Shown here: one piece after another, positions 18,536-59,236 of the stretch
Numbering within the stretch: position 1 is the first letter of the stretch
Layout of the letters: every line of letters begins with the position of its first letter
Assembly (NCBI GenBank): GCA_000091205.1
Contig: AP006502.2
Reading direction: 5' to 3' (one strand)
Length of the DNA: 64,000 nucleotides
Origin: Cyanidioschyzon merolae
Taxonomy: Eukaryota
Position numbers and translations under genes: made by a program
The notes under the pieces: model-generated
The model's input: only the letters and a program-made list of their open reading frames with translations
Databases searched by the model: none
What the model was told of the DNA's origin: nothing

Positions 18536-19051
18536 TCAAGTGGTGTTGCAGTCTCCATGGGAGGCGATCGCCGCGATGACTACAATCTGGGTCCAAGCCT
18601 GCTTTCCATCCAAGCCGAAGAGACACGAGCCTTCTGGAGACAGATCTCGTGCAAGGTATGATGCCAGTGTCGACACTCTGATGTGCTCAATGGGCCGAGG
18701 ATGTCCCACGACCATGGAGGCTACATAACTATCCGCCCGCAGGTGCCTTCCAGCCATTTCGGACCGGACCGCTGTTATCGGTTTCAGTTTATTCAGGCAC
18801 ATTTCAAGTCTGAAAGGCTGTACATCCAAGTTGGATCGCGTCAGCTCCTCGGGTCTCGTCTTCAGGAACGCACCTTGTCTGGTATGGATGGTGGCGTTGA
18901 AGACTCGCTGCGCGAACGCCATGCATTTCCTGCCTCTGGTTGAACTCGTGAATGCAAGGAGTCGTAGAACTGGTCCGCTGTGTTCCATTTGGTGCTGTGC
19001 CAGCTCCCCGTGATTCTCTATTGCCTGAGCGCCCAGCTGGCTTCTCACCAT
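18536..19051 (-). CDS. hypothetical protein (171-aa ORF)
   Basis: ORF only; the surrounding 18.2-19.1 kb has open frames on both strands. No recognisable motif. Confidence 0.15.
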   Translation of the reverse strand: MVRSQLGAQAIENHGELAQHQMEHSGPVLRLLAFTSSTRGRKCMAFAQRVFNATIHTRQGAFLKTRPEELTRSNLDVQPFRLEMCLNKLKPITAVRSEMAGRHLRADSYVASMVVGHPRPIEHIRVSTLASYLARDLSPEGSCLFGLDGKQAWTQIVVIAAIASHGDCNTT

Positions 19052-24820: not shown

Positions 24821-26092
24821 GCAAGTTTAGAGCATTCGGGGAACTCCGAGCAGAGCACTGGCGGGGCTCGTTCACGATTTCTGGCGTCCTTGAAGGGTAC
24901 CGAAGAAAGTCTCTGGGGACAACGGAGACGGACGGAGTACCCATGTGCGTGCGTTCTGTGATACCAAGGCTTTAGTCGACAAACAAGACTCTTTTTCACC
25001 CGCTCAACACGCGTGACCAGAGGCAGTTTGTGGTGGACATCCAAATCGAGTTGAACGACACCATGACCGTCGCCGCAACTCCTATTCTAGAGAACGACAC
25101 GAAAGGCAGGAGCAGGAAGCAGATGCTGCTGCTGCTGCTGCTGCTGCTCAGCATTTCCAGCGCTCTACATGATCGAGAGCAGGGCTTCATCGACGGCAGG
25201 AAGCGCCCTAACAAATGAAAGGTCGGCGTCGCGACTTGGAGTTCGACTTCGACGCCCTGAGCACCTTTTCGAGCAAAGCGACACGCGCGGCACGCTTCAT
25301 GAAGGGAGCGTACGTCATCGTCCAAATGGCTTGTGCAGACGGCCTGTGGCAGTTCCTCGGATCGCACAAGCATCGTCTACCGCTTCGGTTGTGCGGAGGC
25401 AGGAAGCGTCCATTCGACTGCTCGATCCAAGAGCTGGGAACGCAAATGACCGATGAGTAACGTCGCTTGGTGGTAGCCAATGGCGCTGGACGTGCTGTGG
25501 CGCAGAAAGGCTGCACGCCTGCTTCTTGAACGACAGCATATGATAAACCATGAATCGATTCTGAAACCACACCCATGGATATGTTCAGGACGACGTGAAC
25601 GCATCACGAGCTCGGGCGCAAACAAAAACTGTTAGAGAAGAAGAGCGTGAGGCGGAGTCAGATGCACGGGATTGTGTACGGTAAGCTGACTTCACGACCG
25701 ATGGCGAGCTAATCGAAAATGAGAAGCATACTCTGGTGTGATTCTACTGCCAACAATGGGCGCAGGCAGTTTGTAGACCGCGACTCGATCGCCTCGATGA
25801 CCATTCGGGTATGTCCCATGCTTCCGGAGCGTTCAGCGGTATTGGCTCGAGCGAACGAACGGACGAACGAACATCCCGATGAGTCGTTGAGTGCTCCATA
25901 TGGATCATTTCCTGAAACGCTGCAGACTTTTGATGAAAATAACCAGCGTCCGGTCGACAGAGGATTCGATTCGCGCCTGCAGCTAGCCATGGTACCGCGC
26001 GTTTCACCAGTACTCCAGAGCTAAAGCGCGATCTCCATGTTTCCACTGGGAGCTGTTTTTCATGGGAGTTGTTGAACGAAAGCGATGGTGCA
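24821..26092. repeat. left arm of a 1.26-kb inverted repeat pair (reverse-complement of 38214..39474, ~98-99% identical)
   Basis: ORF-track proteins on opposite strands are near-identical (24996..25373- vs 38925..39299+; 25744..26106- vs 38201..38554+). Nucleotide homology stops sharply at 'GCAAGTTTAGAGCATTC' on the outer side and at '...GTTGAACGAAAGCG' on the inner side. Contains a (GCT)n microsatellite at 25125-25148. Confidence 0.9.
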
Positions 26093-27039
26093 TTACTCGA
26101 TATCACAGATTATAGACGTCCATGTCTATCAGGTTTATGCATGGGCCACATGCAGCAAGCAAGTCATCGAGGTTTCTGTTGTGCAAAGAGGTGATGGCTC
26201 CCAAGCAAACCGATTTGCGTATGTGTTGGTTTCTTCCGCGTGTGTGTGTGTGTGTGCCAGTCCATGGCTATGGCTGCTATTTATCCAGATGTCATGGTGT
26301 ATACCCCGTGGTACACAAGGATGAGCGCGACAATGTAAAATCTCTTACGTGCGAGACAAATGTCGTCCAAATGCGACCCAGAGAGTTCTCCATGACACCG
26401 TTATAGAATTGGATGGCTGGTGAACGGTTAAGGCCTTGCGGTCCGCCTGTGTACCTTTCAGATATTGTCTTTGCTGTCCGATACTGAAGCAGAATAGTTT
26501 CGGACGTAACCTCTAGACTTGAACGATAGCACTTCACGCGAACCTGTAGATAGTGTTTGATTCGTCGGCAAGTTCCTTGGTCCAGAGGAGTGGTCGAAAC
26601 CAAGCGAACATCGCCGGTCGCTAATGAAAGTACCGGTGATGATTTCCAGTTTCAACCTGTATCAAGCAGTGCCACCAGAATCTAGGCGATGCATCAGACA
26701 ACCGTTTCGAGCCTGACACGTGAGAGATAATGCTTTTGAACCTATCTTGTTCAGTGAAAATCGCACAACTTGGCTTGGGTGTGTTCTACTTTGAAACTTT
26801 CAAGCGCTTCCCTATTCCATGCCTCAGATATCCCTTGTGCCTTTGGTGCACTATGTATATGGCCCCAAGCGCATCTCTTGCATTCTTTTTACTTGGAAAC
26901 CCAGTAAGCGTTTCACGCTTCCCAGGGGTCATCGGCGACCCGGCTTTTGACGTTCCGTAAGACCTCTCCAGCATCACCTCCATAGAATCTTCCTTGGAAA
27001 CCTTCAGGGAATTTCCATACACTTGATTTGGCGATCCTT

Positions 27040-29561: not shown

Positions 29562-31655
29562 GAGACGCGGCCTTCTCGTGACTAGGTCTGTTCCACGTGA
29601 GCGGACTAGACGGGTACCACGGTGAACGCCAGGGATCGCTCACCGATCCCGATGCAAAGACACACAGTCAGGTACAGACACGCACCCTAGTTTATTCCAA
29701 AGCCCAAGTGGCGCTTCGAGGAGCAACGCTATTTTCCCCAGCGCTTTGGTGGGTAATCTGCAGATGTTGTCCTTCACAAAAATTGGTATCTGATTTGAGC
29801 AGCGCCGAGCGCGCTCACGCGTTTTCGATTTCGATCGATGCTATCGCTTCTGGTACCGGGAAAATCTGCGCAACTCGATGAATGCTGAAGGCTGTTTCAC
29901 TTGGAAGGGCAAGCTTCGGTTGGCAGGCTCTGTGAACGTTGTCGCGTCGTCGCTATAGCCGCGTCAGATTACGATAGGCCATGGGGCTGCTCGTCCTGTT
30001 CGTGCCTTGAGATTTTCTGGACTTTATTTTGTAGATATACTGCCACGTCATTCACAGTGCAACAAGAAGCGCACACGGATGCATACACTGTTAAAAGATG
30101 CTCTATCGTCTTCTCTGAGTTGGTTAGTCGAATGTTCCGGGCTGGAATTCATGGCGTCAGCGCAATCAACACGATTTACGACGCCCTCGAATCAGCGTTC
30201 GAAACATACCCGATATCATCATCCAGTTCATACGTACAGGACTCCACTATTCTGCTTTCCCAATGTCTAGTATGCTCAGATCATGCACGCTTCAAGTTTT
30301 TGATGTTCCTGTCTCAAGGAATTAGGTGCGCGGGGCACTGCTCGCTGCTTGATGAACGAGGAAACAAATTCGACGTCGTTCCTTGACGACTTGTTTACAA
30401 GCTCATGCCAAACGTTCGCTCAACTTATCGCGTCAAATAATTGGTTTCGTTCTAAAGATAAAGCCTATTCTTTTTGTGGCCATCGACGAAACGGCATTCG
30501 ACCCCAGCAATGGTATCTCGGGAGGAATATGCCTCAAGACGATCCTGTCTCTTCTGTTTGCTTGATAACAAGTCTTGGACTCGGACTTGAGTCGTCGCAA
30601 CAATCGCACAAAGCGGAGCGTGCGTCACCATTTTGCATAACGGGAGCGTAGACGGATCAAATCTCTGGAACTCCTTCTCAGATTGGATTCTCCGTCCACT
30701 GCCTGATCCGTCAAGAACAATACTGTGTTGCACAAATCCTCTGTCGAATAGAGCAGCTCGTCGTTGCGCGTGCTGCGGACAGAGAACTACCCTGAGGCAT
30801 TACCACAAAGACGCCTGCGATCGCCGGTTGCAGCTTCGGGATCGAAAAACAGTGGTCGGCATGCGGGGTGCCTTCCGTATCCTCCCCGGGGATGTACTGG
30901 TCGGTGAGGCAAGCTTTCATGTGCCGCAGGCCGCCTTGGAGAAGGGAATATGGTGGGCGTATGGAAAAGCCTGGATCTACTCAAGCGGTATCGCTGTGCA
31001 AGTCGTACCGAGGCCGAATACAAAAAACATTCGCAGATGGCTGCTTTTGCATATGCATGAAATGCGCCGACAGCAACCACAACCTGCGAAATCGGGACGC
31101 TATGGCTGCCTTGAACATCAAACGATGTGTGCGGTAATGACGACGAGACACGCGAGGCTGGCGCGAGCGACCCTCATGGGGCATCCTCTCAGGCTAGAGG
31201 TGAACAAGGAGAAGCTGAAGCAGATGGCAAGCGGCCGATCGAAAAAGGCCAGGAGTGGTCTGTGAGTGAGTATTCCCTTGCCCTGCATGGCCGTGGGACA
31301 TTTTCGTTCCATGGAGCATGCTGGTCTGCAACCATTTTTTAGCTGGCAAATCGATTAAACAGGCCAGGGATCGCCGACTGTGCCCTTGGTATCAGCGCGT
31401 GGTGAAGCAAGCATCATTCCACGCCCTACTTGCAAATTCCATAACCCATACCTCTTCTCGGATATACTGGTCACTTTATTCGTTCTATCGTGCGCCGAGT
31501 ACCTGCCCTGATCATCCGCGATAGCGCCTATTCCGCCTGTGCAGTCGCTGCACGGAGAGAGAACGGCGTCGCCGTACCACTGAGGACGTCGGGTCGAGGA
31601 ACGCTACCCCTGATGGGGAGTTAGAGTACATAATCTTTCTGGGAGCCTGGAAGCT

Positions 31656-31684
31656 CTGCATACAGACCTATAGTCTGTATGCAG
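31656..31684. other. perfect 12-bp-stem palindrome (CTGCATACAGAC-ctata-GTCTGTATGCAG) near the inferred left end of Fanzor copy 1
   Basis: Read directly from the sequence. It could be a sub-terminal hairpin of an IS200/IS605-like end, or an unrelated terminator-like hairpin. Confidence 0.4.
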
Positions 31685-32211
31685 CGCGAAGCGATACGCA
31701 AGGAGATGATTGCGACCAGGGTGGTGCCCAAACGCAGCATACCCGCTCCTTGTACCAGAATAAACTGCGTTTCGAACGAGTTGCTCAGATCTCAATTAAG
31801 TAGCTACCGCTGGGGGAGCATGAAGCACTGCTGTGGCAGACACGTCCGGCTCGCGGGACATTTCGCCTAAAGAATAAACTTTCGGCAATCTGGACGCCGT
31901 TTTCCCCTTTTAATGTTTACCATAGAGGGGAGAGAAATTGTCATATCGTTGCTAGTTAGTCGTGAGTCTCTGTTCTTTGTTCTACATAGTGCGCTCGAGA
32001 CGCGCACCGGAGAGATCAGGCAGGCATGAGTTATGACGCGCTTGTCGCTGTTGAATGGAAACGCGATCCAAATCTTTATGATCTACCTGTAAAGTACACG
32101 TTGTATTTGCATTGAAGTCGTAGCAAACTGTAGTTTCAGTTGAATCGTGTTTCAGCGCTCAAGTAAGAATATTCAAGTGCTTTTTCGCGGTTTATAGCAG
32201 AAGCGTTCAAA

Positions 32212-34477
32212 TTGTGTTCTTTCTCGAAAGAAACTAAAAAAAGAAAGTTATGGAAAAGCAAGTGGAAGATCCTCGAGGGCCGGTACCGCCGGCTGCCAGA
32301 AGAAAAACAAAAAACAATATGGAGTCCAGAGGAACAGGAGAGGACGAAGAAGCAAAGGCAGAAGGCTCTACTTCAAAGGCTGCAAGAAAGACGACTGTAC
32401 GACGAGATGGTGGTGAAAGCCTTTCTTCTTGGACATATCAGGTATCCGTACATACAAAAATTGCGAGAGGCCATCAGAAACCGTGTCGATTCATGCTCCA
32501 AGAGTGTTCGCAAGGCTTCTTTAGGACTGATGCGTATGGCCGGGGATATATTCCGCGACGTGACGCACATGGAAACGGTCGAGATTCCGGACGAGTTTTT
32601 CGATAAGACGTGTATAGGTCAGCTGATACTTGGTACAGAGGAATCGCGGAAGGAAAATGGGCTAGTCCATGGCCTCCACGAAAAAAACATCCCTTTTACA
32701 GCTTCAACGGCGCTCGGTACAAGGGTGACCGGGATATTTACAGCTATGGGGCGATGAAGTACCTCACGAACCTGAAGAACCATTTGACAACGAACCTCGA
32801 ACGTTTCATGATACGCGCCGTGTTTGCACTCTACCCGGGCATCTCGCGCAATGGGAAAGGGGCGATGATCAACGGCATCACGAAAGATCGCAGGCATGAA
32901 GATGAGGTCGAATTCGTCGACAAGAAGGCATCAAACGCGTGCACGAATTAAGCTTCTGTAATCCGTGCGGCTGTACAAGAGCACCGTGCGGTACTGGGGT
33001 TGGCGTATCCAACAGACAAGATATCAGAGTTGAAAGAAGATAAGGAAAGATACTATCGCCTCATCCTGCGATATTTCGTGTTTCTGGACTGTGAACTCGA
33101 ACGCAAGGCGGAAATGAAGCTGAGTGAGGAAAAAATGAAGAGTGGGAGAGACGGAAGGCTGTCCTGTTGGGGAAGCGCTTCAAGGTCGGTGCGTTATGCA
33201 ACATCAAGTCACATTTTGTGAGTATCGATTCCGGCGTCCTCTACGGCATCATGAGGGAGATCTGTTCGGAGTTCGATGTTAGCAGGGAGGAATTCTCCCG
33301 GGAAAACCGGGAGACGTACTGGAAGAACATCTTCGATTTCAAACGTCTCAAAATGAGCGAGCAAAAGTTATTCACTGGGGTGATTGAAACCGATGGAGTA
33401 GCCATGTGTGTACGCTATCGGCGGTTGAAGAAAGATCGGCCAGTTCCGCCCTCGGCTGCGCCCGTCACGAAGGATGAAGAAAAGGAGGAGGCTGGTCCTG
33501 TGGCGCAGGAGGTGCAGGATGACGATCTTGTCGTTGGCGCGGCGAAGCATGAAGATGAGAAGGAGGCGGATCCTGTGATGCAGGAGGTGCAGGATAACGC
33601 CTTTATGGTTGGCGCGGCGAAGCATGAAGAAACGAAGAAGGCGGGTCCTGCGGTGCAGAAAGTGCAGGAGAACGACTTTGTCGTTGGCGCGGACCCCGGA
33701 AACACAAAAAGCATAACTATCGCAGCACCGAAGCGTGCAGAAGATGGTACTGATGGTAACTTGCGTCAGAAGGACATGCGCCTTTTGAGGTGCTCGAGAG
33801 CAAGATACTATCGAGAATCAGGTGTAATGAATGCAAGGAAGAAAATTGAGGCTTGGAACGAAGGAATGAAGGATCACCTGGAAGCTTTAAGCGAGGTGAC
33901 TAGACGAGGAGCGGACTTTGAGGCTTTTCGGAAATTCATGGAAGTTCGTGTTGCCCATTGGGATGCGCTGTGGGAGGAGTATACCAAGCCCCGCTGGGCT
34001 CGTTTGCGAATGAATCTATACTGTGGGAAGCAGCAGGCGTTCGCGAATTTTTTTAATGAGTTGAGCGCCCTGAAGGAGGATGAAAGTCAGAGGCTCGTCG
34101 TAGCGTACGGAGCAGGGCGCTGGAAGATCCGAAAAGGGTGTACACCAGCTCCAACAACGAGAACGTACAAGGAGTGTGCACGGCGTTTTGTTACAGTATC
34201 GATAGTTGAGTTTCGAGCATCGTATACACACCATGAGCTGGGCTGTATACTTCAGAGAGTGGAGATGGAAAAGTGCCAACGGAGCCCTGAGGATATAGCA
34301 AAGTACGGACCACTGACGGAGGAGCAAATGGAAAGGAGGGCAAAAATTCGTGGACTACTTGCATTAGTAAGTGCAACTCCCAACGGCACGAAACGTATGG
34401 AATTTGTGAACCGTGACTTTAACGCCGCTATCAATATACGGAGATGTGCGGTACTGGAGAAGAGACCTCCATCATAG
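32212..34477 (+). pseudogene. TnpB-like / Fanzor-type RuvC nuclease gene, interrupted (two frame changes plus one in-frame TAA)
   Basis: Frame A 32212..~32686 (MCSFSKETKKRKLWKSKWK..., Lys/Arg/Glu-rich and NLS-like) runs to an A7 homopolymer at 32681-32687. Frame B continues (KKHPFYSFNGARYKGDRDIYSYG...KKASNACTN) to TAA 32949-32951, after which the same frame stays open (ASVIRAAVQEH...). Frame C 33128..34477 carries RuvC-I '[16 protein letters not shown]', the Fanzor1-like RuvC-II region 'VVAYGAGRW...IVEFRASYTHHELGC' and RuvC-III 'EFVNRDFNAAINIRRCAV'. Copies 2 and 3 conserve all three parts at the amino-acid level. Confidence 0.6.
33482..33705 (+). repeat. 3 x ~76-bp in-frame tandem duplication inside the Fanzor ORF, immediately preceding/including RuvC-I
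   Basis: Units start at 33482, 33560 and 33635 and encode [26 protein letters not shown] / [25 protein letters not shown] / [24 protein letters not shown]. Only the third unit keeps the catalytic Asp. Copy 3 has a single unit. Confidence 0.85.
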
Positions 34478-34762
34478 ACAAGAGAGCACTTTATTGAACA
34501 ATCTGTCCAAGTCGAACTATATGAGAGAAAGTTGGAAGCAGTAGGAGGTGGCCGATCCAAGAAGGCGCGGAGGCATCTGCACAACTGTCGGAGATGATTT
34601 GTCCAAGGCGCGGTTGCCGCCACGACTGTCCACGCCCGACATCGTTCGAGTTTGAACAGCGTTTTGGAGGCGCGTAATCGATTCATTCGGTTCGCGTTGG
34701 AGCTTTTCGCGGCGTTTTCGTTTCGTGACTGCCGGACACGGGTTTTTGTGAGAAACAGCGAC

Positions 34763-34990
34763 ATGGCGTCACCAAAGAAGACTGCGACGAAAGCTGCTTC
34801 AGCACCGAAAAAGGCTGCGGCGAAAACGAAGGGCGAACGGAAACCAAACGCTTACCAAGAGTTTATGAAGGCAGAGAGTGCCAAGATTCGGGAGTACAAC
34901 AAAGCAAAAGGAATCGAAATGAGGCCACCTGATATTTTCAAGGAGTGTGCGAAGAGATGGAACGAGAAAAAGTCCAAGACAAAGGCGTAA
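34763..34990 (+). CDS. small Lys/Ala-rich DNA-binding-like protein (possible HMG-box-like, 75 aa)
   Basis: ATG at 34763 within ORF 34652..34990: MASPKKTATKAASAPKKAAAKTKGERKPNAYQEFMKAESAKIREYNKAKGIEMRPPDIFKECAKRWNEKKSKTKA. It has a histone-H1-like basic N-terminus and weak resemblance to an HMG-box helix pattern. It lies 180 bp downstream of the copy-1 right end. Confidence 0.35.
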   Translation: MASPKKTATKAASAPKKAAAKTKGERKPNAYQEFMKAESAKIREYNKAKGIEMRPPDIFKECAKRWNEKKSKTKA

Positions 34991-35340
34991 AGGCTCTGGA
35001 CTTGCGCGGTGGTGACGGTACTGGTGCTGGCGGCAGCGGGTCGTGCAGCTTGTAGTTCATAGTCGGTGACCTGGACGTTGACGGAGCGGTGGTTATGGTG
35101 GCAGTGCTCGTGGTTGAGCTCGGCCCGTTACCCGCCAACGCGCTGAGGGGTCAAAAAGCAATCGGGGCTGTCGGCGTGTCACCGTTACAAAGCTCTGCTG
35201 TTGCAGGATGCGTTTTCCCTCGCCAGTTTGGACAAGAAGCTGCCCTCATTTCGGGGCGCTGGAACCAGTGCGAGGCAGCGCCGAGGCCAGGAGCATATGT
35301 CGGGGACGTTCACAGAGCTGGTTTCGATTGAGGTTGTGAC

Positions 35341-35385
35341 GGTTGTGGTGGTTATGGTGCTGGTGCTGGTGCTGGTCGTGGTGGA
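35341..35385. repeat. (GGT/GCT)n compound microsatellite
   Basis: ggttgtggtggttatggtgctggtgctggtgctggtcgtggtgg. Confidence 0.9.
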
Positions 35386-36686
35386 ACTGTCAGGTTCGTG
35401 GAGGAATTTACTGGAAAATAAAAAATGGCAACATAAGATCCCGTATGTGTCTTTCAAGTCTTTCGATTCGGCTCTAACAGTGCTGTGTCTCCTCGGTGCA
35501 GTTTTCGCTGATGACGTAGATCCCTGAAACGCGCTGCAGAGGCCGTGGCGTTGCAGGCCTGCGACCCACTAGGTAGCATCTGTGTGTCGTCCATCGTGAT
35601 GCTTCCCTCGCTGCCAGAGACCATACCTTCCAGAGTGGACGCGATGAAGAGAGCGACGTGTGAGCGTGCGCAACTCTTGGGCTGTCAGCATTTTTGGTGT
35701 GTGAAAGTGTCAACCAGGCTCCCGGGTGAGGAAAATCTCTAAAATTGGTATTTCTTCCAGCAGAGGACACCCCAATCTGAGCTCCCTCACTGAACAGGAG
35801 ATTGACAGTGGCACGTGTGATACGGCTTTGCGGCCCTGGGTATCGGAGCACAAAATAGCTGCAACTCCTCGGCGTGCTTTTCCAGTGTGGGATTGATGCA
35901 TCGAAACTGGGTCCATCGGATGCGCGACGGCAACTCGTAACCAGGAGGCGATCTCAGTACCTCTTTAGACGAGTCAACATTCCGATGATCCCAGACCGGA
36001 CTTGCCGTCGAGAGTAGGCGCTTGATCGTTCCCGTGGCTCGCCAGGTGCCAAGCATACCGCGAGCGCTTCGCAGCGCTTGGCGCTCGCGGACCCGGTCGT
36101 CAACCGGATATGCCATGCGCCGGGGCATTTTTCCGCCGCGTGTCTGTTAACCACGGATAAGAGAGCGATATTTCGCCAATCGGAATGCATTGATTCATGG
36201 GCAAAGTAGATCGTTGCGTTTCTATGGATGATAGTGGTCGAGATCGGTCAGAGCTCCGCACGGACCGCGATCGATCGCTCCGATCAGCAAAGCGTGTTTG
36301 GAAGCCGGATCGTTGCCTCGGATCAAGCAATGCCCGATTCGATGATGTTTATTTCCGTCTTTAGACCAGAAAAGTGATGCTTGGAGAACCGCGGGGCTCC
36401 TGCGAAACATCGCGCGCTCGTTGTATAGGTAACCGCATAGGCACAGTGCTCTCAACCAAAGCTACGTGAAAATCATTCCGAAGCTCATGATGCCGCGCCC
36501 GGGGTTGCCGAGCTGCTGCGAAGTATGCCCTCTGCGGCAGACAATGGACAGTACAGCGTGACGACTCACCTGTAGTACGCCCAGCCGTATGGCGTCGTCT
36601 AAACTGGACTCTAGGATAACCAAAATTGGCCGCGTATAAGGAGAGCCTTACATCCGTGTCGTCATGCTCAGCTAGATGAAAACATT

Positions 36687-37544: not shown

Positions 37545-38213
37545 ATTGCAAGGTAGCAGCGCCGAGCAACGTTTGCGCTTGAGCGGCAGCTCCCAGAAGT
37601 GACACTCAGGTTTACAGAAACAGAGGGCGCTTTGCACGCACACGCACGGATAAATACGCACGCAGACACGCACGAAATAAACTCAGACACGCAAACAGAA
37701 ACTTGGCGCCACGAAACGAATGCATCAGCGCCACGATCGCTTCGGCGCAATCGGCGATGGGCGCGCTGGTGCACTCGCTGGCATCTGTGCAGCGCGATCC
37801 GTCGCTTACCGGGTTCGTTAAAGGTAACGCGCAGCTGGTGGATGTAGTTCAGTTCATGGGTCTGAATGCTGACGAAAATTGTGCATTTCCAGGTCACTGG
37901 ATTTGTGTCGTGAGACCGCTGCATGTAGAAGCGGGTTGTTCATTCACGGCATCAAAAGCTCGTTGTGTGGTGAGTCGTTTTGCGCATTCAGCCTCGAAGT
38001 GTACGCTCGAATCGGCAACGGTCTGAGAAACATTTTGAGCTATGGGTGGACTCCAAAATCAGGCCAAGCAAAGTGTTTCTCTTCAAACGGGCATGCTGAG
38101 GCGCCATCACGAGCCTTCATAGGAGAGCCTCAAGTCGGGTACCGCGAGTAGAAGCCATGGAGATTTAGCGCGTTATTTTGGCTCTAGTCAGTGACGTGGA
38201 TTGAATGAAACAG

Positions 38214-39474
38214 CGCTTTCGTTCAACAATTCCCATGAAAAACAGCTCCCAGTGGAAACATATAGATCGCGCTTTAGCTCTGGAGTACTGGTGAAACGCG
38301 CGGTACCATGGCTAGCTGCAGGCGCGAATCGAATCCTCTGTCGACCGGACGCTGGTTATTTTCATCAAAAGTCTGCAGCGTTTCAGGAAATGATCCATAT
38401 GGAGCACTCAACGACTCATCGGGATGTTCGTTCGTCCGTTCGTTCGCTCGAGCCAATACCGCTGAACGCTCCGGAAGCATGGGACATACCCGAATGGTCA
38501 TCGAGGCGATCGAGTCGCGGTCTACAAACTGCCTGCGCCCATTGTTGGCAGTAGAATCACACCAGAGTATGCTTCTCATTTTCGATTACCTCGCCATCGG
38601 TCGTGAAGTCAGCTTACCGTACACAATCCCGTGCATCTGACTCCGCCTCACGCTCTTCTTCTCTAACAGTTTTTGTTTGCGCCCGAGCTCGTGATGCGTT
38701 CACGTCGTCCTGAACATATCCATGGGTGTGGTTTCAGAATCGATTCATGGTTTATCATATGCTGTCGTTCAAGAAGCAGGCGTGCAGCCTTTTTGCGCCA
38801 CAGCACGTCCAGCGCCATTGGCTACCATCAAGCGACGTTACGCATCGGTCATTTGCGTTCCCAGCTCTTGGATCGAGCAGTCGAATGGACGCTTCCTGCC
38901 TCCGCACAACCGAAGCGGTAGACGATGCTTGTGCGATCCGAGGAACTGCCACAGGTCGTCTGCACAAGCCATTTGGACGATGACGTACGCTCCCTTCATG
39001 AAGCGTGCCGCGCGTGTCGCTTTGCTCGAAAAGGTGCTCAGGGCGTCGAAGTCGAACTCCAAGTCGCGACGCCGACCTTTCATTTGTTAGGGCGCTTCCT
39101 GCCGTCGATGAAGCCCTGCTCTCGATCATGTAGAGCGCTGGAAATGCTGAGCAGCAGCAGCAGCAGCAGCATCTGCTTCCTGTTCCTGCCTTTCGTGTCG
39201 TTCTCTAGAATAGGAGTTGCGGCGACGGTCATGGTGTCGTTCAACTCGATTTGGATGTCCACCACAAACTCCCTCTGGTCACGCATGTTGAGCGGGTGAA
39301 AAAGAGTCTTGTTTGTCGACTAAAGCCTTGGTATCACAGAACGCACGCACATGGGTACTCCGTCCGTCTCCGTTGTCCCCAGAGACTTTCTTCGGTACCC
39401 TTCAAGAACTCCAGAAATCGTGAACGAGCCCCGCCAGTGCTCTGCTCGGAGTTCCCCGAATGCTCTAAACTTGC
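38214..39474. repeat. right arm of the 1.26-kb inverted repeat pair (partner of 24821..26092)
   Basis: See the left-arm entry; (CAG)n at 39150-39170 mirrors the left-arm (GCT)n. Confidence 0.9.
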
Positions 39475-45357: not shown

Positions 45358-47826
45358 TTACGAGCATACTCGGTAGCCGTCCTCGAGCTGCTGAATTTCG
45401 TCCGGAAGCAGTTCCCGAATCCGGCGCGTTACTGGATCGAAACGATACGGAATGTTACCCAGTTCGCCATCGAAGCGATTCTTCCGCACATCCAGGTACT
45501 TGTAATGACGTCCGTTCTGAATGATGATCACATTATCGGCTTCCTGGGTTGCTTTCGCGCTTCCAAAAACGCTGGCTGTTTTGAGAAGTTGATCTTCGTC
45601 TTCTTTGCGCGGATGGATCACGACTGAGACGTGTACGTTATGTTCCGTCGCAAAAGCGCGAAACTTTTCAATGGCGCGATCCATGATCTCAAAGCGCTCG
45701 TATCCACGCCCCTGTCCACTCGTCATGAATTGCAAATTATCTAGTACCACATGAGCGACATCGTAAACATATGCTGCGTATTCCATAGCGTGAATGACCT
45801 GATCCACATCGCTGGACCCGAAGAATCGCAGAAAATAAAGAGGAAGTTGTTCAAACTGGTCAGCGACTTGATCGAACCGTTCCCCCATGGCATCCAGACC
45901 GATGCCGGCGAACTGACTGAGCATCACTTTCGCCATCCGAACATTGTTCAGTTCGAACGAACCCCAGAGTGTATTCGCACCTTGCATGCAATAATCAAGC
46001 GAGAGTTGCGATAGCACTGTGGTTTTCCCAACGCCGGTCGGTCCAGAAAAGATGGTGAGCTCGCCGCGACGGTGACCCTTCAGCAGACGATTAAGTCCGG
46101 GCAAGGTCTGACTCTGGAGGCCACGAACCTGCACAGGATTCGCCAACTCTCGCTGGACATCGGCCCGCAGGTCAGCAAACGTTACGATTCGCTCGTGCGG
46201 CACTGGACGTGCTCGCTCGATCATGGCGAAGAGGTCGCGCTGCTGCAAAAGCGCCTCGTTTGCGTCCTTCGGGCCGCTTCCATTGCCGCTTCCAACAAGA
46301 AAGCAGCGTTGCAACCCGAGCTTGTGTGCGAACTGCCTCGCTCCATCGTGTCCAGGGATATCGTCATCGAGCCAGAGATAAATCCGCTTGAAACGCTCCA
46401 ACCAGGTGAGAAGCGCAGGAGGCAGGGATCGAGCGCCGTTCGGAAGCGACACCGCACTGAGGCCCGTTGACTGGTGCACCGCCATCGCGTCAAACTCGCC
46501 CTCAGTCACCACGAGACACTCTGCATCCGCAGGGACAAGATGCATACCGAAAAGACCCCAGTAGCCACCACGCGGCTCCAGTCGCATTGCCGACTTGCGC
46601 AGCACAGAACGGATCTTCAGCCGCAACACGCGTGATGGCGGTGGAACACTGGAGTCCTGGCAGGCGCTCTCTTCGCTGCCGAGATTGGACCCTGCAGGGT
46701 TCGGGTCACGTCGGTGGTCTAGCTCCACCAGCGTTGATGGAGCACGCGTGGTAAGCCATTCCGGCTCTATCCACGGGAAGGTGATGCAGTCGTGCTCGGA
46801 CCAGATGTCTGCGGTGCTGCCGCTATCACGAAAACGAAAGCGGCCGGCTCCGACGCGGAACTTGCGTGCAGTTGCGAGTTGCAAGCCACGGGATTTCAGG
46901 AACTGTTTGACTGCGTCACTGCTCTCTAGGCGTGCTTCGCACTGAGCTGCAAGAGCCGCATCAACCACAGGCAACTGCTCCGTTGCCACTGAGTCTATTT
47001 GTGACGTATTAGCGCTCACTGACGCCGCTCCTGAATCCGCGGGGCGAGCACTTGTTGGATGCGCGCCTGGAGCAAGGTGCGCGTTTTCAGGAAACTGACC
47101 TCTCCAGCTAAGTGGTTCCAGGATATCACCAAAACTTCGTTTCAAGTCCCAGTGGTTGCCTTTCGCGCCACAGCGATGGCAGAAAAACACGCCACTAGAC
47201 GTATGGACGTAAAGTTTGAACATGTTGTCCGCCTTGCCGCGCACGGGCGGGCAAAAGGGACAGATGCGGACCACTGCGTGCTGGTCCATCATACGGACCT
47301 CGAGGCCTTTGTCTTCGAGATAGCGTACCATATGACCCGGGGGCAGTTCGAAGAATTGGGAAACAAACGGTGTTCCCGTGGGCGTCTCTCGTATCGGGGG
47401 GCGCGTTCGACGCTGAGGCCAGCGAGCCACTGCGGGCCACAGCGCCGCAGCTCTCAGATCGCGGAGACTCCAAGCGTTGCTGACACCTCGTCGCAGGGCG
47501 TCATGGTCGCTGTTTGTGTAGTTCAAGGGCTCACCATAAATTTCCGGCGGAAACAGGTCTGCTGGTGGTGCGCCAGCGTCCGCTGGCGTTGGATCGTTCG
47601 ACGCCTCTCGTCGGGCAGCATTATCTGTTGTCGGTCCGGGAGAGCCTTGGTTCGCTTTGTCCGAGCGCAGTGTACGCTTCAAACGCACCGGTGTGCTGCC
47701 CGCTCTCTTCAGTGAAAAACTATGGGCTAGAAACGAACGAACAGGTCCCAGGGACGGAAACAGCTGTCGCGACAGCGAAACCCACTTCCACTGCACAAGT
47801 CGCGCTCCATCTTTCCAGTATGTCAT
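45358..47826 (-). CDS. Twinkle-type mitochondrial/organellar DNA primase-helicase (T7 gp4-like)
   Basis: 822 aa. Arg/Ser-rich N-terminal presequence. Primase zinc-binding domain 'CPFCPPVRGKADNMFKLYVHTSSGVFFCHRCGAKG'. TOPRIM 'LVVTEGEFDAMAV...IYLWLDDDIPGHDGARQFAHKLG'. DnaB-like helicase Walker A 'IFSGPTGVGKTTVLSQLSL' and Walker B 'HVVLDNLQFM'. Confidence 0.9.
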   Translation of the reverse strand: MTYWKDGARLVQWKWVSLSRQLFPSLGPVRSFLAHSFSLKRAGSTPVRLKRTLRSDKANQGSPGPTTDNAARREASNDPTPADAGAPPADLFPPEIYGEPLNYTNSDHDALRRGVSNAWSLRDLRAAALWPAVARWPQRRTRPPIRETPTGTPFVSQFFELPPGHMVRYLEDKGLEVRMMDQHAVVRICPFCPPVRGKADNMFKLYVHTSSGVFFCHRCGAKGNHWDLKRSFGDILEPLSWRGQFPENAHLAPGAHPTSARPADSGAASVSANTSQIDSVATEQLPVVDAALAAQCEARLESSDAVKQFLKSRGLQLATARKFRVGAGRFRFRDSGSTADIWSEHDCITFPWIEPEWLTTRAPSTLVELDHRRDPNPAGSNLGSEESACQDSSVPPPSRVLRLKIRSVLRKSAMRLEPRGGYWGLFGMHLVPADAECLVVTEGEFDAMAVHQSTGLSAVSLPNGARSLPPALLTWLERFKRIYLWLDDDIPGHDGARQFAHKLGLQRCFLVGSGNGSGPKDANEALLQQRDLFAMIERARPVPHERIVTFADLRADVQRELANPVQVRGLQSQTLPGLNRLLKGHRRGELTIFSGPTGVGKTTVLSQLSLDYCMQGANTLWGSFELNNVRMAKVMLSQFAGIGLDAMGERFDQVADQFEQLPLYFLRFFGSSDVDQVIHAMEYAAYVYDVAHVVLDNLQFMTSGQGRGYERFEIMDRAIEKFRAFATEHNVHVSVVIHPRKEDEDQLLKTASVFGSAKATQEADNVIIIQNGRHYKYLDVRKNRFDGELGNIPYRFDPVTRRIRELLPDEIQQLEDGYRVCS

Positions 47827-52232: not shown

Positions 52233-53243
52233 TCACAAAGTCGCGGACGCCTTGCGGTAATAAGGCGGCCACAGATCATAACCGAATCGCTCGTAATCCT
52301 CGGCGTACAATTTTCTAACCCTTTGCGCCAGACGTTCGTTCACGTGCTTGTGCAAGAGGCTTGCTGCGCTCTGGGAGTGCAGGGTATTCCGGCCGCTCGC
52401 TTGTGCTCGCTTCCGCATGGATTCGTGCCACTCGAGACCGGCCTGACCAAACATATCCACGTAAAACTTTCGAAGTGACTCGGGTTCATCTACTTTTCCG
52501 ATACAGTCGAAGAATGTCCGAGGCAGCATGCGAAAAAGGCAGAAGCCCGACTGTGGGCGCCAATGTTCGTCGAACGGTGTCAGATCTGGGGTCATGGTCT
52601 TTGCAGCCTCTTCCAGGTAGTCCACAAAACGTTCAAACGAGTGAGGGTATCGATTTTTCAATGGATATCGTTCCAGTTCGCGTCCAGCTTTGACTTTATC
52701 AAGGTAAGCCGACAGCAAGCGTGTAAGCGGATGGCGCACCAGGGCACCAAACTTCCACGATGGATCCGAGAGCACTCGAAGAAGCTCCTCGTCCTGCAAA
52801 TGAAGGAGCTGCGTCAAGTTTGCGCGGCCTTGCGGATGAATCAAGTGGATTTCATCGGCATCCAGGGGGTCCAGAACCACCCCCAGCGTTTCCCGCAAAG
52901 CAAATGCACGTGCGGCAGTACAACCGGCTTTCGGTATCGAGCAGAGCAGGCGCTGTTGTTTCGCGAATACGATAACGCCAACAAACGATTGCTCCTGTTC
53001 CCGACGCCAAAGATCAGAAATATTCTGAAAATACTCTGCAAGCGGTTTTTCATTGAAGAGACTTGCAAGCACTGGGGCTTGCCAGGAAAAGTTTACTGTG
53101 TGAGAACGATACTCACTCGGAGAAGATGTTTCGAGTCCGGGCGACGGAACCATGAGGGTTTGCAGCACGCGGTGCGAGGCCAGGATCAGAAGCAACACCC
53201 AGAAAACGGTGAACCAGAAAAACCACCGAAACCATAAATGCAT
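52233..53243 (-). CDS. carbohydrate sulfotransferase-like protein 1 (Sulfotransfer_2 family, type II membrane topology)
   Basis: ORF 52233..53369 that starts at GTG in the track; ATG = rc of 53241..53243 (MHLWFRWFFWFTVFWVLLLILA is a TM segment). 5'-PSB-like 'CSIPKAGCTAARAF', 3'-PB-like 'LVRHPLTRLLSAYLDK', 'DEHWRPQSGFCLFR'. Paralog of 58163..59236. Confidence 0.7.
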   Translation of the reverse strand: MHLWFRWFFWFTVFWVLLLILASHRVLQTLMVPSPGLETSSPSEYRSHTVNFSWQAPVLASLFNEKPLAEYFQNISDLWRREQEQSFVGVIVFAKQQRLLCSIPKAGCTAARAFALRETLGVVLDPLDADEIHLIHPQGRANLTQLLHLQDEELLRVLSDPSWKFGALVRHPLTRLLSAYLDKVKAGRELERYPLKNRYPHSFERFVDYLEEAAKTMTPDLTPFDEHWRPQSGFCLFRMLPRTFFDCIGKVDEPESLRKFYVDMFGQAGLEWHESMRKRAQASGRNTLHSQSAASLLHKHVNERLAQRVRKLYAEDYERFGYDLWPPYYRKASATL

Positions 53244-53456
53244 ATCTATTTCCTCTACACCGACACGTTGCTTTCCAGGGAAACGAGTGGGAAGATCGTG
53301 TTCCCTCACTCGCCTAATACAAAGCGCCAATGGCTGCAGAAGCGCTGGTGCGGAGTACGCCGCACGCACGCACCAAACGCCGTTCGAACTTGAACGACGT
53401 CGGGCGTGTACAGTAGTGGCGGGAAAACCGTCTTAGATTAGAAGTCTCCAACTGAC

Positions 53457-56450
53457 GTGCAGATGCCTCCGCGCCTTTTTGGATCGGCCACCTCCTACTG
53501 CTTCCAACTTTCTCTCATATAGTTCGACTTGGACAGATTGTTCAATAAAGTGCTCTCTTGTCTATGATGGAGGTCTCTTCTCCAGTACCGCACATCTCCG
53601 TATATTGATAGCGGCGTTAAAGTCACGGTTCACAAATTCCATACGTTTCGTGCCGTTGGGAGTTGCACTTACTAATGCAAGTAGTCCACGAATTTTTGCC
53701 CTCCTTTCCATTTGCTCCTCCGTCAGTGGTCCGTACTTTGCTATATCCTCAGGGCTCCGCTGGCACTTTTCCATCTCCACCTTCTGAAGTATACACCCCA
53801 GCTCATGGTGTGTATACGATGCTCGAAACTCAACTATCGATACTGCAACAAAACGCCGTGCACACTCTTTGTACGTTCTCGTTGTTGGAGCTGGTGTACA
53901 CCCTTTTCGGATCTTCCAGCGCCCTGCTCCGTACGCTACGACGAGCCTCTGACTTTCATCCTCCTTCAGGGCGCTCAACTCATTACAAAAATTCGCGAAC
54001 ACCCGCTGCTTCCCACAGTATAGATTCATTCGCAAACGAGCCCAGCGGGGCTTGGTATACTCCTCTCCCAGCGCATCCCAGTGGGCAACACGAACTTCCA
54101 TGAATTTCCGAAAAGCCTCAAAGTCCGCTCCTCGCCTAGTCACCTCGCTCAAAGCTTCCAGGTGATCCTTCATTCCTTCATTCCAAGCCTCAATTTTCTT
54201 CCTTGCATTCATTGTACCGGATTCTCGATAGTATCTTGCTCTCGAGCACCTCAAAAGGCGCATGTCCTTCTGACGCAAGTTACCATCAGTACCATCTTCT
54301 GCACGCTTCGGTGCTGCGATGGTTATGATATGTGTGTTTCCGGGGTCCGCGCCAACGACAAAGTCGTTCCCCTGCACTTTCTGCACCGCAGGACCCGCCT
54401 TCTTCGTTTCCTCATGCTTCGCCGCGCCAACCATAAAGGCGTTATCCTGCACCTCCTGCATCACAGGATCCGCCTCCTTCTCATCTTCATGCTTCGCCGC
54501 GCCAACGACAAGATCGTCATCCTGCACCTCCTGCGCCACAGGACCAGCCTCCTCCTTTTCTTCATCCTTCGTGACGGGCGCAGCCGAGGGCGGAACTGGC
54601 CGATCTTTCTTCAACCACCGATAGTGTACATACAATGCTACTCCATCGGTTTCAATCACCCCAGTGAACAACTTTTGCTTGCTCGTTTTGAGACGTTTGA
54701 AATTGAAGGTGTTCTTCCAGTAGGTTTCCCGGTTTTCACCGGTGAAGTCCTCCCTGCTAACATCGAACTCCGGACTGTTCTCCCTCATGATGCCGTAGAG
54801 GACGCCGGAATCGATACTCACAAAGTGTGACTTGATGTTGCATAACGGAACGACGTTGAAGCGCTTCCCCATTCGGACAGCCTTCCGTCTCTCCTACTCT
54901 TCATTTGTCTCTTCACTCAGCTTCATTTCCGCCTTGCGTTCGAGTTCACAGTCCAGAAACACGAAATATCGCAGGATGAAGCGATAGTATCTTTCCTTAT
55001 CTTTTTTCAACTCTGATATCTTGTCTGTTGGATACGCCAACCCCAGTACCGCACGGTGCTCTTGTACAGCCGCACGGATTACAGAAGCTTAATTCGTGCA
55101 CGCGTTTGATGCCTTCTTGTCGACAAATTCGACCTCATCTTCATGCCTGCGATCGTTCGTGATGCCGTTGATCATCGCCCCTTTCCCATTGCGCGAGATG
55201 CCCGGGTAGAGTGCAAACACGGCGCGTATCATGAAACGTTCGAGGTTCGTTGTCAAATGGTTCTTCAGGTTCGTGAGGTACTTCATCGCCCCATAGCTGT
55301 AAATATCCCGGTCACCCTTGTACCGAGTACCGTTGAAGCTGTAAAAGGGATGTTTTTTCGTGGAGGCCATGGACTAGCCCATTTTCCTTCCGCGATTCCT
55401 CTGTACCAAGTATCAGCTGACCTATACACGTCTTATCGAAAAACTCGTCCGGAATCTCGACCGTTTCCATGTGCATCACATCACGATACATCTCCCTCAC
55501 CAAATGCATCAGTCCTGACGACGCCTTGACAATACTCTTGGTGTACGAGTCGACACGTTTTACGATAGCGTCTCGCAACAATTCCCTGTGGGGATCCTTG
55601 ATATGTCCAAGAAGGAAGGTTTTCACCACCTTCTCGTTGTACAGTCGTCTTTCTTGCCGCCTTCGACGTAGGGCCTCTCCCTTTCGGTTCTTCTTCTATT
55701 CCTTTTCTCCTGGACTCGGCACTGTTTTTTGTTTTTTCTGGCAGCCTGCGACCCTGGGCCTCCAGGATCGTGGACATGCTTTTCCATAGCTTTCCTTTTT
55801 GTTTTTTTTTTGAAGAAGAACGCTCTTTGAACCCTTCTGTTATATACTGCAAAAAAACACTAGACTAGAGTTGTTTGAAGTTTGAAACAAAAACGAACTG
55901 AAAGGCTGTACTTTGCAATGACCTCAACGAAAATACAACTTTTAGAACAGAGCTACACGAATGAGATCGAGATCGCGTCTCTCTTCAACGACGGCACGCA
56001 CATCGTGTCAGTTAACTGCGCGATCTCCCAAGCGCGCTCGCTATGCGCAATGCGTGCACCGCGCGAGACGCTACTCGGATCGATGAAGGACACGTGTTCG
56101 ACGCCGCATTGGCACATGCGCGTTAGCATCGCACTGGAGCTGAAATAAAGTATCATAGACCGGAAACTCACGTGGAACGATCTCTTGCTATAAGCTATGT
56201 CGCTCGTGCACATCGCAGTACGGACCTGACATACATGGAGATGTAGGGGCCTGGCACGATACCCCTCGACGCTTCTATCAAAAGCGTAGTCGCGGTAGCA
56301 TCTTACGCTTGTGCGGGTAAGGTATGCATCACACCAGCTTGGAAGGGTTTCGTTCGGTTTATTGATCGTAAATAAAGTAGGCACAGTCGTATAACCAAGT
56401 ATGAATATACGTTTATTCTCTATCCTTGTTATGCATGCAGCGCAGACGCT
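53457..56450 (-). mobile_element. Fanzor/TnpB-like element, copy 2 (inverted relative to copy 1)
   Basis: The rc of 53457.. matches the copy-1 right end exactly up to 'GCGGAGGCATCTGCAC' and then diverges. The internal 3x tandem repeat lies at ~54340-54570. The 5' region is weakly homologous to copy 1 as far as ~56450. Confidence 0.6.
53562..55852 (-). pseudogene. TnpB-like / Fanzor-type RuvC nuclease gene (copy 2), same interruptions as copy 1 plus an extra N-terminal frameshift
   Basis: 436-aa ORF 53562..54872 is ~93% identical to the copy-1 C-terminal ORF (RuvC-I GADPGNT, RuvC-III NRDFNAAINI). ORFs 55089..55370, 55312..55629 and 55481..55852 match copy-1 frames B and A. The homopolymer is A6 here (T6 at 55353-55358 on the + strand). 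Confidence 0.6.
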
Positions 56451-58162: not shown

Positions 58163-59236
58163 TCACGAGAGCGCGCCATCTGCATCCACCTCATCCGGCC
58201 ACAAGTCATAGCCGAAATTGATATAGTCTTCCGCGTATAGTCGCTGGATGCGCTTTGCTAGGTCCTCACTAACGTACGCCCGCAGCTTGGCATTCGCGGA
58301 TCGCGCATGTGCGGCCTGCTGACGATGCGCTGCGGCTCGTGCGTCTTGATCCTGGACCCAGCGGCGTCCGTCCTCGTCGAACATATCGATAAAAAGTTGT
58401 CTCAACGCGCTGCGATTCTCAACTTTCACGACGTAATCATACAATTGACGGGGTATAAAACGAAAAAGACAAAACCCCGACTGAGGTCGCCAGTGCTCAT
58501 CGACCCAGTCCCAGTTTTTCCGATACCGACGTGCAACGTCTTCCAAGATGCTTACAAAATGCTCAAACGATGTTACAGGTTGCCGCTGCAGTGGACGACG
58601 CCAAAGTTCCCTCTGGCCAACAATTTTATCCAAGTACGCTGATAGGAGGCGTGATAGAGGGTGTCGCACCACAGCAGCGTACCTCCAGTCCGGGTGCGTC
58701 AGAGCATAATGAACCTGGTCGTCTGAGAGTGACCCCAGCTGCAGCAGGAAGCGTTTGCTGACGGGATGAATATACGAGAAATTCTGCGCATCCGTCGGAT
58801 TGAGCTCAACGTTCAGCTGCTTGCGCAGGGCGAACGCCCGCAGGTTCGTGCACGCAGCCTTCGGAATACTACAGAGCAAGCGTTTCTCTTTCGGAAAAAC
58901 AATGACCCCAACGTAGCTGAGTTTCTGCTCCACTCGCCACTCTGGCTTCAGTTTGAGGCTGATGTTGTGCTTTCCGTTCACAAGACGTTCCGCTGCCGAC
59001 GGAGTTGCGGGCCCTATCGATCCCTGTCCGATAGTTGTGTCCGTTCTCTTTGGGAGCTGCTCAGATGAGAGTGGGCCCCACAGCGCGGAGCGTGAAGCAA
59101 TGTTGAACGCCGTTGACGCCACAGCCAGGCACCACAAAATGAAAAGCACTGTCAGCACCTGTCGCCAGCTCAGCCTCGAAGACATAAACAAACGTATACC
59201 CATTCGGCGACTGCGTACTAGCGAAACCCAGCTCAT
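58163..59236 (-). CDS. carbohydrate sulfotransferase-like protein 2 (Sulfotransfer_2 family)
   Basis: 357 aa, ATG = rc of 59234..59236. N-terminal TM 'VLTVLFILWCLAVAS'. 'CSIPKAACTNLRAF', 'AVVRHPLSRLLSAYLDK', 'DEHWRPQSGFCLFR'. About 50% identical to 52233..53243. Confidence 0.7.
   Translation of the reverse strand: MSWVSLVRSRRMGIRLFMSSRLSWRQVLTVLFILWCLAVASTAFNIASRSALWGPLSSEQLPKRTDTTIGQGSIGPATPSAAERLVNGKHNISLKLKPEWRVEQKLSYVGVIVFPKEKRLLCSIPKAACTNLRAFALRKQLNVELNPTDAQNFSYIHPVSKRFLLQLGSLSDDQVHYALTHPDWRYAAVVRHPLSRLLSAYLDKIVGQRELWRRPLQRQPVTSFEHFVSILEDVARRYRKNWDWVDEHWRPQSGFCLFRFIPRQLYDYVVKVENRSALRQLFIDMFDEDGRRWVQDQDARAAAHRQQAAHARSANAKLRAYVSEDLAKRIQRLYAEDYINFGYDLWPDEVDADGALS

Follow-up and report, generated by a model that had tools for sequence, protein, structure and literature searches.

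The DNA stretch analyzed here, hereafter the window, comprises 64,000 nucleotides (nt) from Cyanidioschyzon merolae (contig AP006502.2) and carries three copies of a repeat element whose gene encodes a protein of the Fanzor1 family. The 105 nt that follow the stop codon of copy 1 (34478-34582) had been proposed, in an original prediction made from the sequence, to be the non-coding scaffold of a guide RNA (omega RNA) that ends at 34582 and is followed by a 20-nt guide. Our analysis indicates that 34478-34582 is the C-terminal coding tail of a decayed Fanzor1 gene, not a guide-RNA scaffold. The explanation that we regard as probable combines this decayed tail, a premature TAG, and a gene conversion tract, with a candidate omega-RNA module downstream, at 34570-34676. 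The original prediction was right in kind, and wrong in coordinates, boundary, guides, and reasoning: the element is of the TnpB/Fanzor type and has a conserved, strand-specific right-end module, but what was said specifically of 34478-34582 did not hold. The three copies and the main features of copy 1 are as follows.

31334-34676 (+): copy 1, a ~3.3-kb Fanzor1-bearing repeat element without its own transposase gene
32317-34477 (+): Fanzor1 pseudogene of copy 1 in three frames (32317-32733, 32682-33131, and 33134-34477), located by tblastn of the relative P0003
33468-33692 (+): three 75-nt tandem repeats (25 amino acids [aa] each) inside the gene
34478-34582 (+): in-frame tail codons (TREHFIEQSVQVELYERKLEAVGGGRSKKARRHLH) stranded behind the premature TAG, identified by translation and by relatives that read through
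34583-34606 (+): remnant of the ancestral end of the gene, including the originally proposed guide, identified by alignment of frames and stops across copies
34570-34676 (+): right-end module, candidate omega-RNA scaffold of ~107 nt, degenerate in copy 1
34677-34696 (+): first truly variable flank, and the relocated guide position if the module is an omega RNA
53364-56040 (-): copy 2 (left limit provisional), an inverted Fanzor1 pseudogene with the same TAG at 53562-53564 and its module at ~53364-53469
61312-64000 (-): copy 3, ~74% identical, running off the window, with the tail read through and a different, short right end

A coding tail, a premature stop, and a conversion tract

The open reading frame (ORF) at 33167-34477 (+) in copy 1 is closed by a TAG at 34475-34477. 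The frame stays open beyond this codon (...RPPS*TREHFIEQSVQVELYERKLEAVGGGRSKKARRHLH), and the tail peptide of the family reads TRENFxGQPLKVELYEKKLEAVxGGRSKKxGRRLH... The equivalent codons are read through in copy 3 (ORF 61304-62074), in P0002, a relative with 94% identity from a public metagenome (...RPPALTRENFIEQSVQVELYERKLEAVGGGRSKKARRHLHVSWRLLL), and in the metagenome relatives P0005, P0008, P0009, P0014, P0018, and P0020. Among 61 distinct copies, the tail frame is open for at least 40 codons in 41, whereas either of the other frames is so in just one of 61; 26 copies end precisely after codon 42, at a TAG or TAA that they have in common (...SWRRFV* or ...SWRLLx*). Homologues at 30-40% identity also have a C-terminal tail past the motif RPxxLxR. 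Since copy 3, most relatives, and distant homologues all keep this frame and read on through it, the tail is coding, and what had been taken for a non-coding spacer is the open continuation of the ORF frame. A residual codon periodicity in its column variability points the same way.

The premature TAG is common to copies 1 and 2; at the orthologous locus, L001, the codon reads TTG. It aligns with the conserved Leu of RPxxLxR. The change from TTG to TAG in copies 1 and 2 cuts the ORF, which is why the tail resembles a non-coding spacer. Further along, copy 1 has an in-frame TGA at 34595-34597, and the stop of the family (TAG or TAA) aligns to 34604-34606. The codon at the TAG site is hypervariable among 64 copies (TTG in 13, TGG in 11, TCG in 11, TAG in 10, and CTG in 7) and sits roughly where canonical Fanzor1 proteins end; TAG recurs there in copies of different right-end subtypes.

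The 20-nt sequences originally taken as guides, AACTGTCGGAGATGATTTGT and GTCAGTTGGAGACTTCTAAT, share homology with one another and with all the other members of the family; they are not flanking DNA. Mean column variability over 34583-34602 is ~0.19 (~81% column conservation), and 10 other loci have an exact match to the first 13 nt of the copy 2 sequence at the corresponding position. Translated, the two sequences give the C-terminus of the ancestral protein: HVSWRLLI* from copy 2 and HNCRR*FVQG from copy 1. The variable guide expected next to a conserved scaffold is absent at 34583-34602; variability of that kind (0.6-0.7) begins at ~34677. Copies 1 and 2 are 25% identical at 34677-34696, and a search of the window for a second match to this segment with three or fewer mismatches found none.

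Near-identity of the 105 nt in copies 1 and 2 was confirmed, with a single A/G difference, at 34561, between copy 1 and the reverse complement of 53457-53561. The accompanying claim that the stretch is more conserved than the coding sequence failed, as the adjacent coding DNA also has one mismatch. Mismatches between copies 1 and 2 were distributed as follows.

Flagged stretch, 34478-34582: 1/105
Last 217 coding bases: 1/217
Last 478 coding bases: 9/478
Whole high-identity core, 32600-34477: 61/1879

The Fisher p value for the flagged stretch was 0.25 against the core and 1.0 against the last 478 coding bases, and across 66 family copies 34478-34582 is slightly below the ORF in conservation. 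The structured RNA that had been expected there did not appear on folding. The stretch reached -20 kcal/mol (z = +0.67), 153 of 200 shuffled sequences folded as well, the copy 2 equivalent gave z = +0.38, and RNAalifold on 64 copies returned no consensus structure, with zero pairs predicted in the flagged region.

It is thus extremely unlikely that 34478-34582 is a non-coding omega-RNA scaffold ending at 34582 with guides in the next 20 nt. Such an arrangement would suit an element that is indeed Fanzor1, the near-identical 105 nt in copies 1 and 2, the position of the TAG near RPxxFSR, where canonical Fanzor1 proteins end, and the recurrence of TAG at that codon in 10 of 64 copies. However, most copies conserve the frame and read through it, shuffled sequences fold equally well, identity does not exceed that of adjacent coding DNA, homology goes on to ~34676, and the supposed guides are ~81% conserved family-wide and encode ...HVSWRxxx*.

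The near-identity itself has another source, which emerges when copies 1 and 2 are compared along their length.

32000-32600: 60-85% identity
32600-34582: ~97% identity
34583-34676: 70% identity (28/94 mismatches)
Beyond 34676: random (18/24 mismatches)

Locus L001 is the orthologue of the copy 2 locus, with which it shares its flank and the sulfotransferase gene downstream. Outside the core, copy 2 sides with L001 at 135 of the 137 informative sites at which it matches either L001 or copy 1, and five more sites match neither. Within the core, the copy 2 base matches that of copy 1 at 33 sites and that of L001 at 30. At 34361-34582, copies 1 and 2 have one difference (34561), and copy 2 and L001 are 96-97% identical. 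Such a pattern is characteristic of inverted copies that have repeatedly undergone ectopic conversion with each other. The most recent gene-conversion or recombination tract spans ~34280-34582 (~300 nt), carried the TAG, and has its edge at 34582/34583, nested in an older mosaic core of ~2 kb (32600-34582). We attribute the near-identity of 34478-34582 to this recent tract, not to RNA constraint, and the apparent boundary at 34582 to the conversion edge that falls there, homology between the two copies persisting to ~34676. Ectopic gene conversion of dispersed or inverted repeats leaves the same sharp-edged tracts of high identity within lower-identity homology and the same mosaic sites; nothing is unusual about the present case, for which conversion is an ordinary explanation. 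It is a cautionary one: a premature stop combined with a conversion tract can pass for a conserved non-coding spacer, and the edge of the tract for a transposon end.

No intact Fanzor1 ORF is present in the window, and all three copies are pseudogenes. Copy 1 has two frameshifts and the TAG, copy 2 has one frameshift and the TAG, and copy 3 has at least four frameshifts. With frameshifts in each of the three ORFs and a copy 1 module that has ceased to fold, the system is dead in the window.

Fanzor1 membership of the protein family

The protein family is Fanzor1 by both profile and fold. Pfam gave zero matches on the window ORFs, and neither phmmer with the ORF nor hmmsearch with a shallow 24-sequence profile retrieved anything relevant from the PDB; a diverse profile was needed because these searches were blank. 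An exhaustive profile search collected 1,449 relatives, and a profile of 52 diverse homologues matched the PDB entries of PpFz1 (9cf0, E = 1.2e-21), SpuFz1 (8gkh, E = 5.3e-13), and GtFz1 (9cer, E = 2.2e-6), in alignments that span REC/WED, GxDPG, DEFRT, NRDxNAAxNI, and RPxxLxR. The three RuvC acidic residues (D/E/D) are invariant in the diverse alignment (D484, E656, and D725, in GxDPG, DEFRT, and NRDxNAAxNI), and the corresponding motifs in copy 1 are GADPGN, VEFRAS, and NRDFNAAINI.

An AlphaFold2 (AF2) model of P0003 (752 aa), built on the diverse alignment, had a pLDDT of 80.4 and a pTM of 0.79; an earlier model built on a shallow alignment (pLDDT 34) was discarded. The model matches SpuFz, PpFz, and GtFz in their bilobed WED-REC-RuvC-TNB fold. 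Its top seven Foldseek matches in the PDB were all Fanzor1 (E = 9e-17 to 3.5e-14; target TM-score 0.48-0.72), and Cas12 effectors ranked next. Beyond Fanzor1, the fold matches were only remote ones, in the Cas12 family. Sub-threshold Cas12f1-like TNB matches appeared in two distant relatives only.

The family shares with Fanzor1 of Spizellomyces punctatus (SpuFz1), Parasitella parasitica (PpFz1), and Guillardia theta (GtFz1) its profile homology and fold, the RuvC D/E/D motifs, the C-terminal RPxxLxR, the placement of the gene on the 3' side of a multicopy element, and a conserved non-coding right-end module with variable flank beyond. In contrast to these, a CxxC...CxxC zinc finger is not evident between RuvC-II and RuvC-III (consensus judged by eye), a basic C-terminal tail of ~45 aa and a variable, predicted-disordered array of 25-aa repeats are added, the window protein is not recognized by Pfam, and the window copies are all pseudogenes. 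The acidic 25-aa repeats are inserted ahead of RuvC-I and also occur at 54347-54571. Their number varies from zero to at least five among relatives (P0004, P0005, and P0012), and the AF2 model shows this region as disordered.

A few metagenome samples together contain at least 406 related loci. The DNA of the window is nuclear and eukaryotic, and its genes, among them those for WDR75, Nrap, a Twinkle-like helicase, and RING proteins, are long and uninterrupted. A literature search found no paper connecting Fanzor with Cyanidiophyceae (red algae). The family appears to be an uncharacterized, high-copy Fanzor1 family from an intron-poor eukaryote, distinguished by a delimitable ~107-nt module, module copies lacking the gene tail, two right-end types, a basic C-terminal extension, and an internal repeat array.

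The right-end module

Copy 2 and more than 60 further copies remain homologous past 34582, as far as ~34676. The module at 34570-34676 overlaps the last ~12 ancestral codons and the natural stop, ends in an imperfect hairpin of ~45 nt, and shares only its first ~13 nt with the last ~13 nt of the flagged interval. Its parts are as follows.

34572-34578 with 34592-34598 (+): possible 7-bp stem-loop 1 (SL1; GGCGTCT/AGACGTC)
34607-34621 (+): GGCG(G)/CGCC hairpin with variable loops
34622-34633 (+): conserved linker CCACTACTGTACAC
34640-34661 and 34662-34676 (+): long terminal hairpin, consisting of an inner stem-loop and a G/T-rich 15-nt 3' arm, respectively

In an alignment of 66 distinct 3' ends, family conservation is high through ~34661 and then intermediate for 15 nt. 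This 15-nt segment (34662-34676) is 73% G+T, compared with 52% in the next 16 nt, and it pairs with the upstream arm better than the following flank does (-8.7 versus -5.2 kcal/mol; p = 7e-7). We placed the right end near 34676 because the segment is G/T-rich, pairs with the upstream arm, and is shared by independent insertions; pairs of nearest-neighbour copies offered too few cases to fix it. The 5' edge is marked by "ghost" modules that lack an adjacent Fanzor tail (L048:384-500, L058:435-550, L057:692-790, and L071:1016-1116). These lie ~0.7 kb upstream of a Fanzor ORF and are preceded by unrelated sequence. Their homology to the canonical right end starts at GGAAGCGTCTGCAC, equivalent to window position ~34570, which sets the 5' edge of the module there. 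The ghost modules are embedded in a larger conserved unit that reaches more than 500 nt upstream.

Because RNAalifold gave no consensus structure, hand-specified helices and a covariance model were used. The model, R1, found 88 sense-strand copies and matched copy 1 at 34583-34682 (59 bits, E = 1e-16) and copy 2 at 53356-53456 (82 bits); it had no match on copy 3. The inner stem occurs as two sequence types, CGTCGTTCGA/TCGAACGGCG and AACGTTTTTC/GAAAGACGTT, each with 10 bp and a U-rich loop, and the whole terminal hairpin reaches 24 bp in intact-looking copies (L051). Its mean minimum free energy is -20.4 kcal/mol in sense and -13.7 kcal/mol in antisense (p = 2e-7), a bias that depends on G.U pairs. 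Fold z-scores of the module in intact copies are -1.8 to -4.8 in sense and about -0.9 to -1.0 in antisense in three of the four copies tried. Copy 2 gave -2.4 to -2.9, and copy 1, at +0.09, folds no better than shuffles. Cells with double changes numbered 31, compared with 14.2 +/- 3.3 in shuffles (0/500, in a model-fitted alignment), and fell mostly in the inner terminal helix. The two 5' helices, in unfitted alignments, were 81% paired, compared with 34-61% when slid. The 7-bp SL1 candidate was paired in 81% of cells (43-61% when slid) with few double changes, not above shuffles, and a 4-bp stem around the natural stop is a competing alternative. A long-range helix between CAGTAGT in the tail and ACTACTG in the linker was rejected, with no compensating changes in variant copies.

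Structural support for the module is real but moderate, because it comes from thermodynamics, strand bias, and essentially one compensatory switch. Among characterized systems, the omega RNA of SpuFz1 has a 75-nt two-stem scaffold over the 3' inverted repeat and a variable extension of 14-15 nt, that of GtFz1 overlaps 17 C-terminal codons, and S. punctatus has ghost omega-RNA loci without a gene (PMC10432273). The module described here is similar in position and size class, overlaps the ORF end to a small extent as in GtFz1, and occurs in gene-less copies as in S. punctatus. In solved Fz1 omega RNAs the first element is a 7-bp SL1, with one to three more stem-loops after it (PMC11423790); GGCGTCT/AGACGTC is an unproven candidate for the corresponding helix. 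The present module differs from those of SpuFz1 and PpFz1 in its length, ~107 nt, and in a terminal hairpin far longer (up to ~24 bp) than their SL2. By analogy, 34570-34676 is most likely an omega-RNA scaffold. Its transcription would run in the sense direction of the ORF, with the flank from near 34677 serving as the guide.

Several observations weigh against this picture of a coding tail followed by an RNA module. The exact right end of copy 1 is uncertain, between 34662 and 34676. The double-change count comes from a model-fitted alignment and mostly reflects one switch between type A and type B stems. RNAalifold on MAFFT alignments of 64 and 24 sequences found essentially no structure, covariation of the two 5' helices in unfitted alignments was not above shuffles, and 3' arms paired with their own 5' arms no better than with swapped arms (p = 0.61). 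A search of 31000-36000 against Rfam at E <= 1 gave no match. As to the tail, mean column variability at codon positions 1, 2, and 3 is 0.138, 0.093, and 0.151, compared with 0.08, 0.07, and 0.18 in the ORF. Positions 1 and 2 are thus freer than in the ORF (p = 1e-5), which points to weak protein constraint, and position 3 is similar (p = 0.59). Finally, TAG in 10 of 64 copies may mean that loss of the tail is tolerated or recurrent.

The main rival is that the module functions only as a DNA-level transposon end, with its hairpin read by a trans-acting transposase in the manner of IS200/IS605 or Helitrons; a DNA-end function is also compatible with an RNA role. The hairpin does lie at the extreme end of the element, and the left end has a small subterminal hairpin and a AAACGTTT palindrome resembling the reverse complement of the right end (by eye, unscored). 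G.T pairs are also allowed in single-stranded DNA, so the strand bias does not discriminate between the two. Covariation is weak, and the family has hundreds of copies yet no transposase of its own. On the other hand, the overlap of module and ORF is like that in GtFz1, modules lacking the gene tail persist like the ghosts of S. punctatus, and in characterized TnpB and Fanzor systems the conserved end region beside the nuclease gene encodes the omega RNA, the two roles overlapping (PMC10432273). We consider a role restricted to DNA unlikely.

More doubtful still is the idea that the tail codons double as the start of a longer omega-RNA precursor, within 34478-34582. There is precedent in the omega RNA of ISDra2 TnpB, which overlaps the ORF more than that of GtFz1, and in the 5' extensions that raised SpuFz1 activity (PMC10432273). 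Third positions of the tail are not freer than those of the ORF (0.152 versus 0.175), and positions 1 and 2 are; GAACTATATGAG is nearly invariant at every codon position; and CAGTAGT (34540-34546) is complementary by eye to the linker ACTACTG. However, the third-position difference is not significant (p = 0.59), the fold z of the stretch is +0.67, conserved runs of third positions are expected by chance (28% of ORF third positions vary by 0.05 or less), and ghost modules have nothing of the tail upstream of ~34570.

The TnpB elements of the IS200/IS605 type (ISDra2) place the guide RNA of a RuvC nuclease at the right end, overlapping the 3' end of the ORF, and the candidate module lies in the same place. 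Subterminal hairpins at the ends are likewise common to both, and here too the guide would be taken from the flank. The elements described here differ in their eukaryotic nuclear context, in having no TnpA, and in showing only a weak (T/C)GA preference at the left end. If the module is an omega RNA, intact relatives (the P0003, P0005, and P0008 loci) would supply a concrete scaffold and guide position for a possible new Fz1 editor; they could also serve to study the spread of Fanzor elements that have no transposase.

Insertions that are not close relatives in their internal sequences can carry identical 15-16-mers after the hairpin, and their flanks diverge at once. TTTGTTTCCAGGGGT was found in five contexts and GTGGTGGCTTGTCCAT in two. 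The terminal segments are located at window 34662-34676; L013:1730, L041:3193, L046:4426, L048:464, and L058:515; and L024:4635 and L081:1291, and their sharers are at neighbour rank 8-46 of 58. Shared 15-mers with diverging flanks would fit RNA-guided homing into recurring guide-matching sites, and the shared 15-mers would also fit a parental guide carried along during copying. Right-end pieces upstream of other left ends (31128-31302 and the ghosts in L048, L057, L058, and L071) would fit preferential insertion beside existing right ends. No empty site carrying the terminal 15-mers was found in the 566 kb searched. That the 15-nt G/T segment at 34662-34676 is derived from a guide or target rather than being element sequence seems very unlikely to us. 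The copy 1 terminal segment TTTTGGAAGCGCGAA has a 13/15 match at ~45554-45568 (-), in the ORF of the Twinkle-like helicase; this match, with some extra upstream similarity, is probably due to chance.

Element ends, other copies, and neighboring sequences

Homology of the copy 1 left end with 16-18 other copies begins at ATTTTTTAGCTGGCAAATCG, position 31334, and near 34676 its right end loses homology with copy 2 and the family. A weak (T/C)GA preference precedes the T-run of the left end (10-16 independent ends). A by-eye search of element ends showed no target-site duplication, and a by-eye search for inverted repeats showed only an imperfect ACAAA(A)CGT..TTT similarity between them. The element has no second gene (no TnpA). 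The ~0.9 kb between the left end and the first Fanzor codons (31334-32300) is without an obvious ORF; it is common to one class of relatives and replaced in another, in which homology starts from ~31990-32002.

In copy 3 (61312-61351 [-]), the hairpin module gives way to a second type of right end, ...GCGTCTGC|GAGTGGATATTCATTTACC...CATGGTCGTGGGACATTTTCG. Elements of the copy 3 type keep the shared sequence through ...GCGTCTGC and then change to the short right end, which was also seen in L016:5490-5780 (-) and in two fragments in the window.

31128-31302 (+): copy-3-type 3'-end fragment, ending ~30 nt upstream of the copy 1 left end
18701-18934 (-): copy-3-type 3'-end fragment

Copies 2 and 3 lie in tandem, 7.7 kb apart. 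Sulfotransferase (Sulfotransfer_2) paralogues are located downstream of each, at 52233-53369 (-) and 58163-59236 (-), so that segmental duplication, rather than transposition, may have given rise to these two copies. The copy 1 region is bracketed by another, separate pair of inverted repeats (24821-26094 and 38204-39474), ~1.3 kb long and 98-99% identical.

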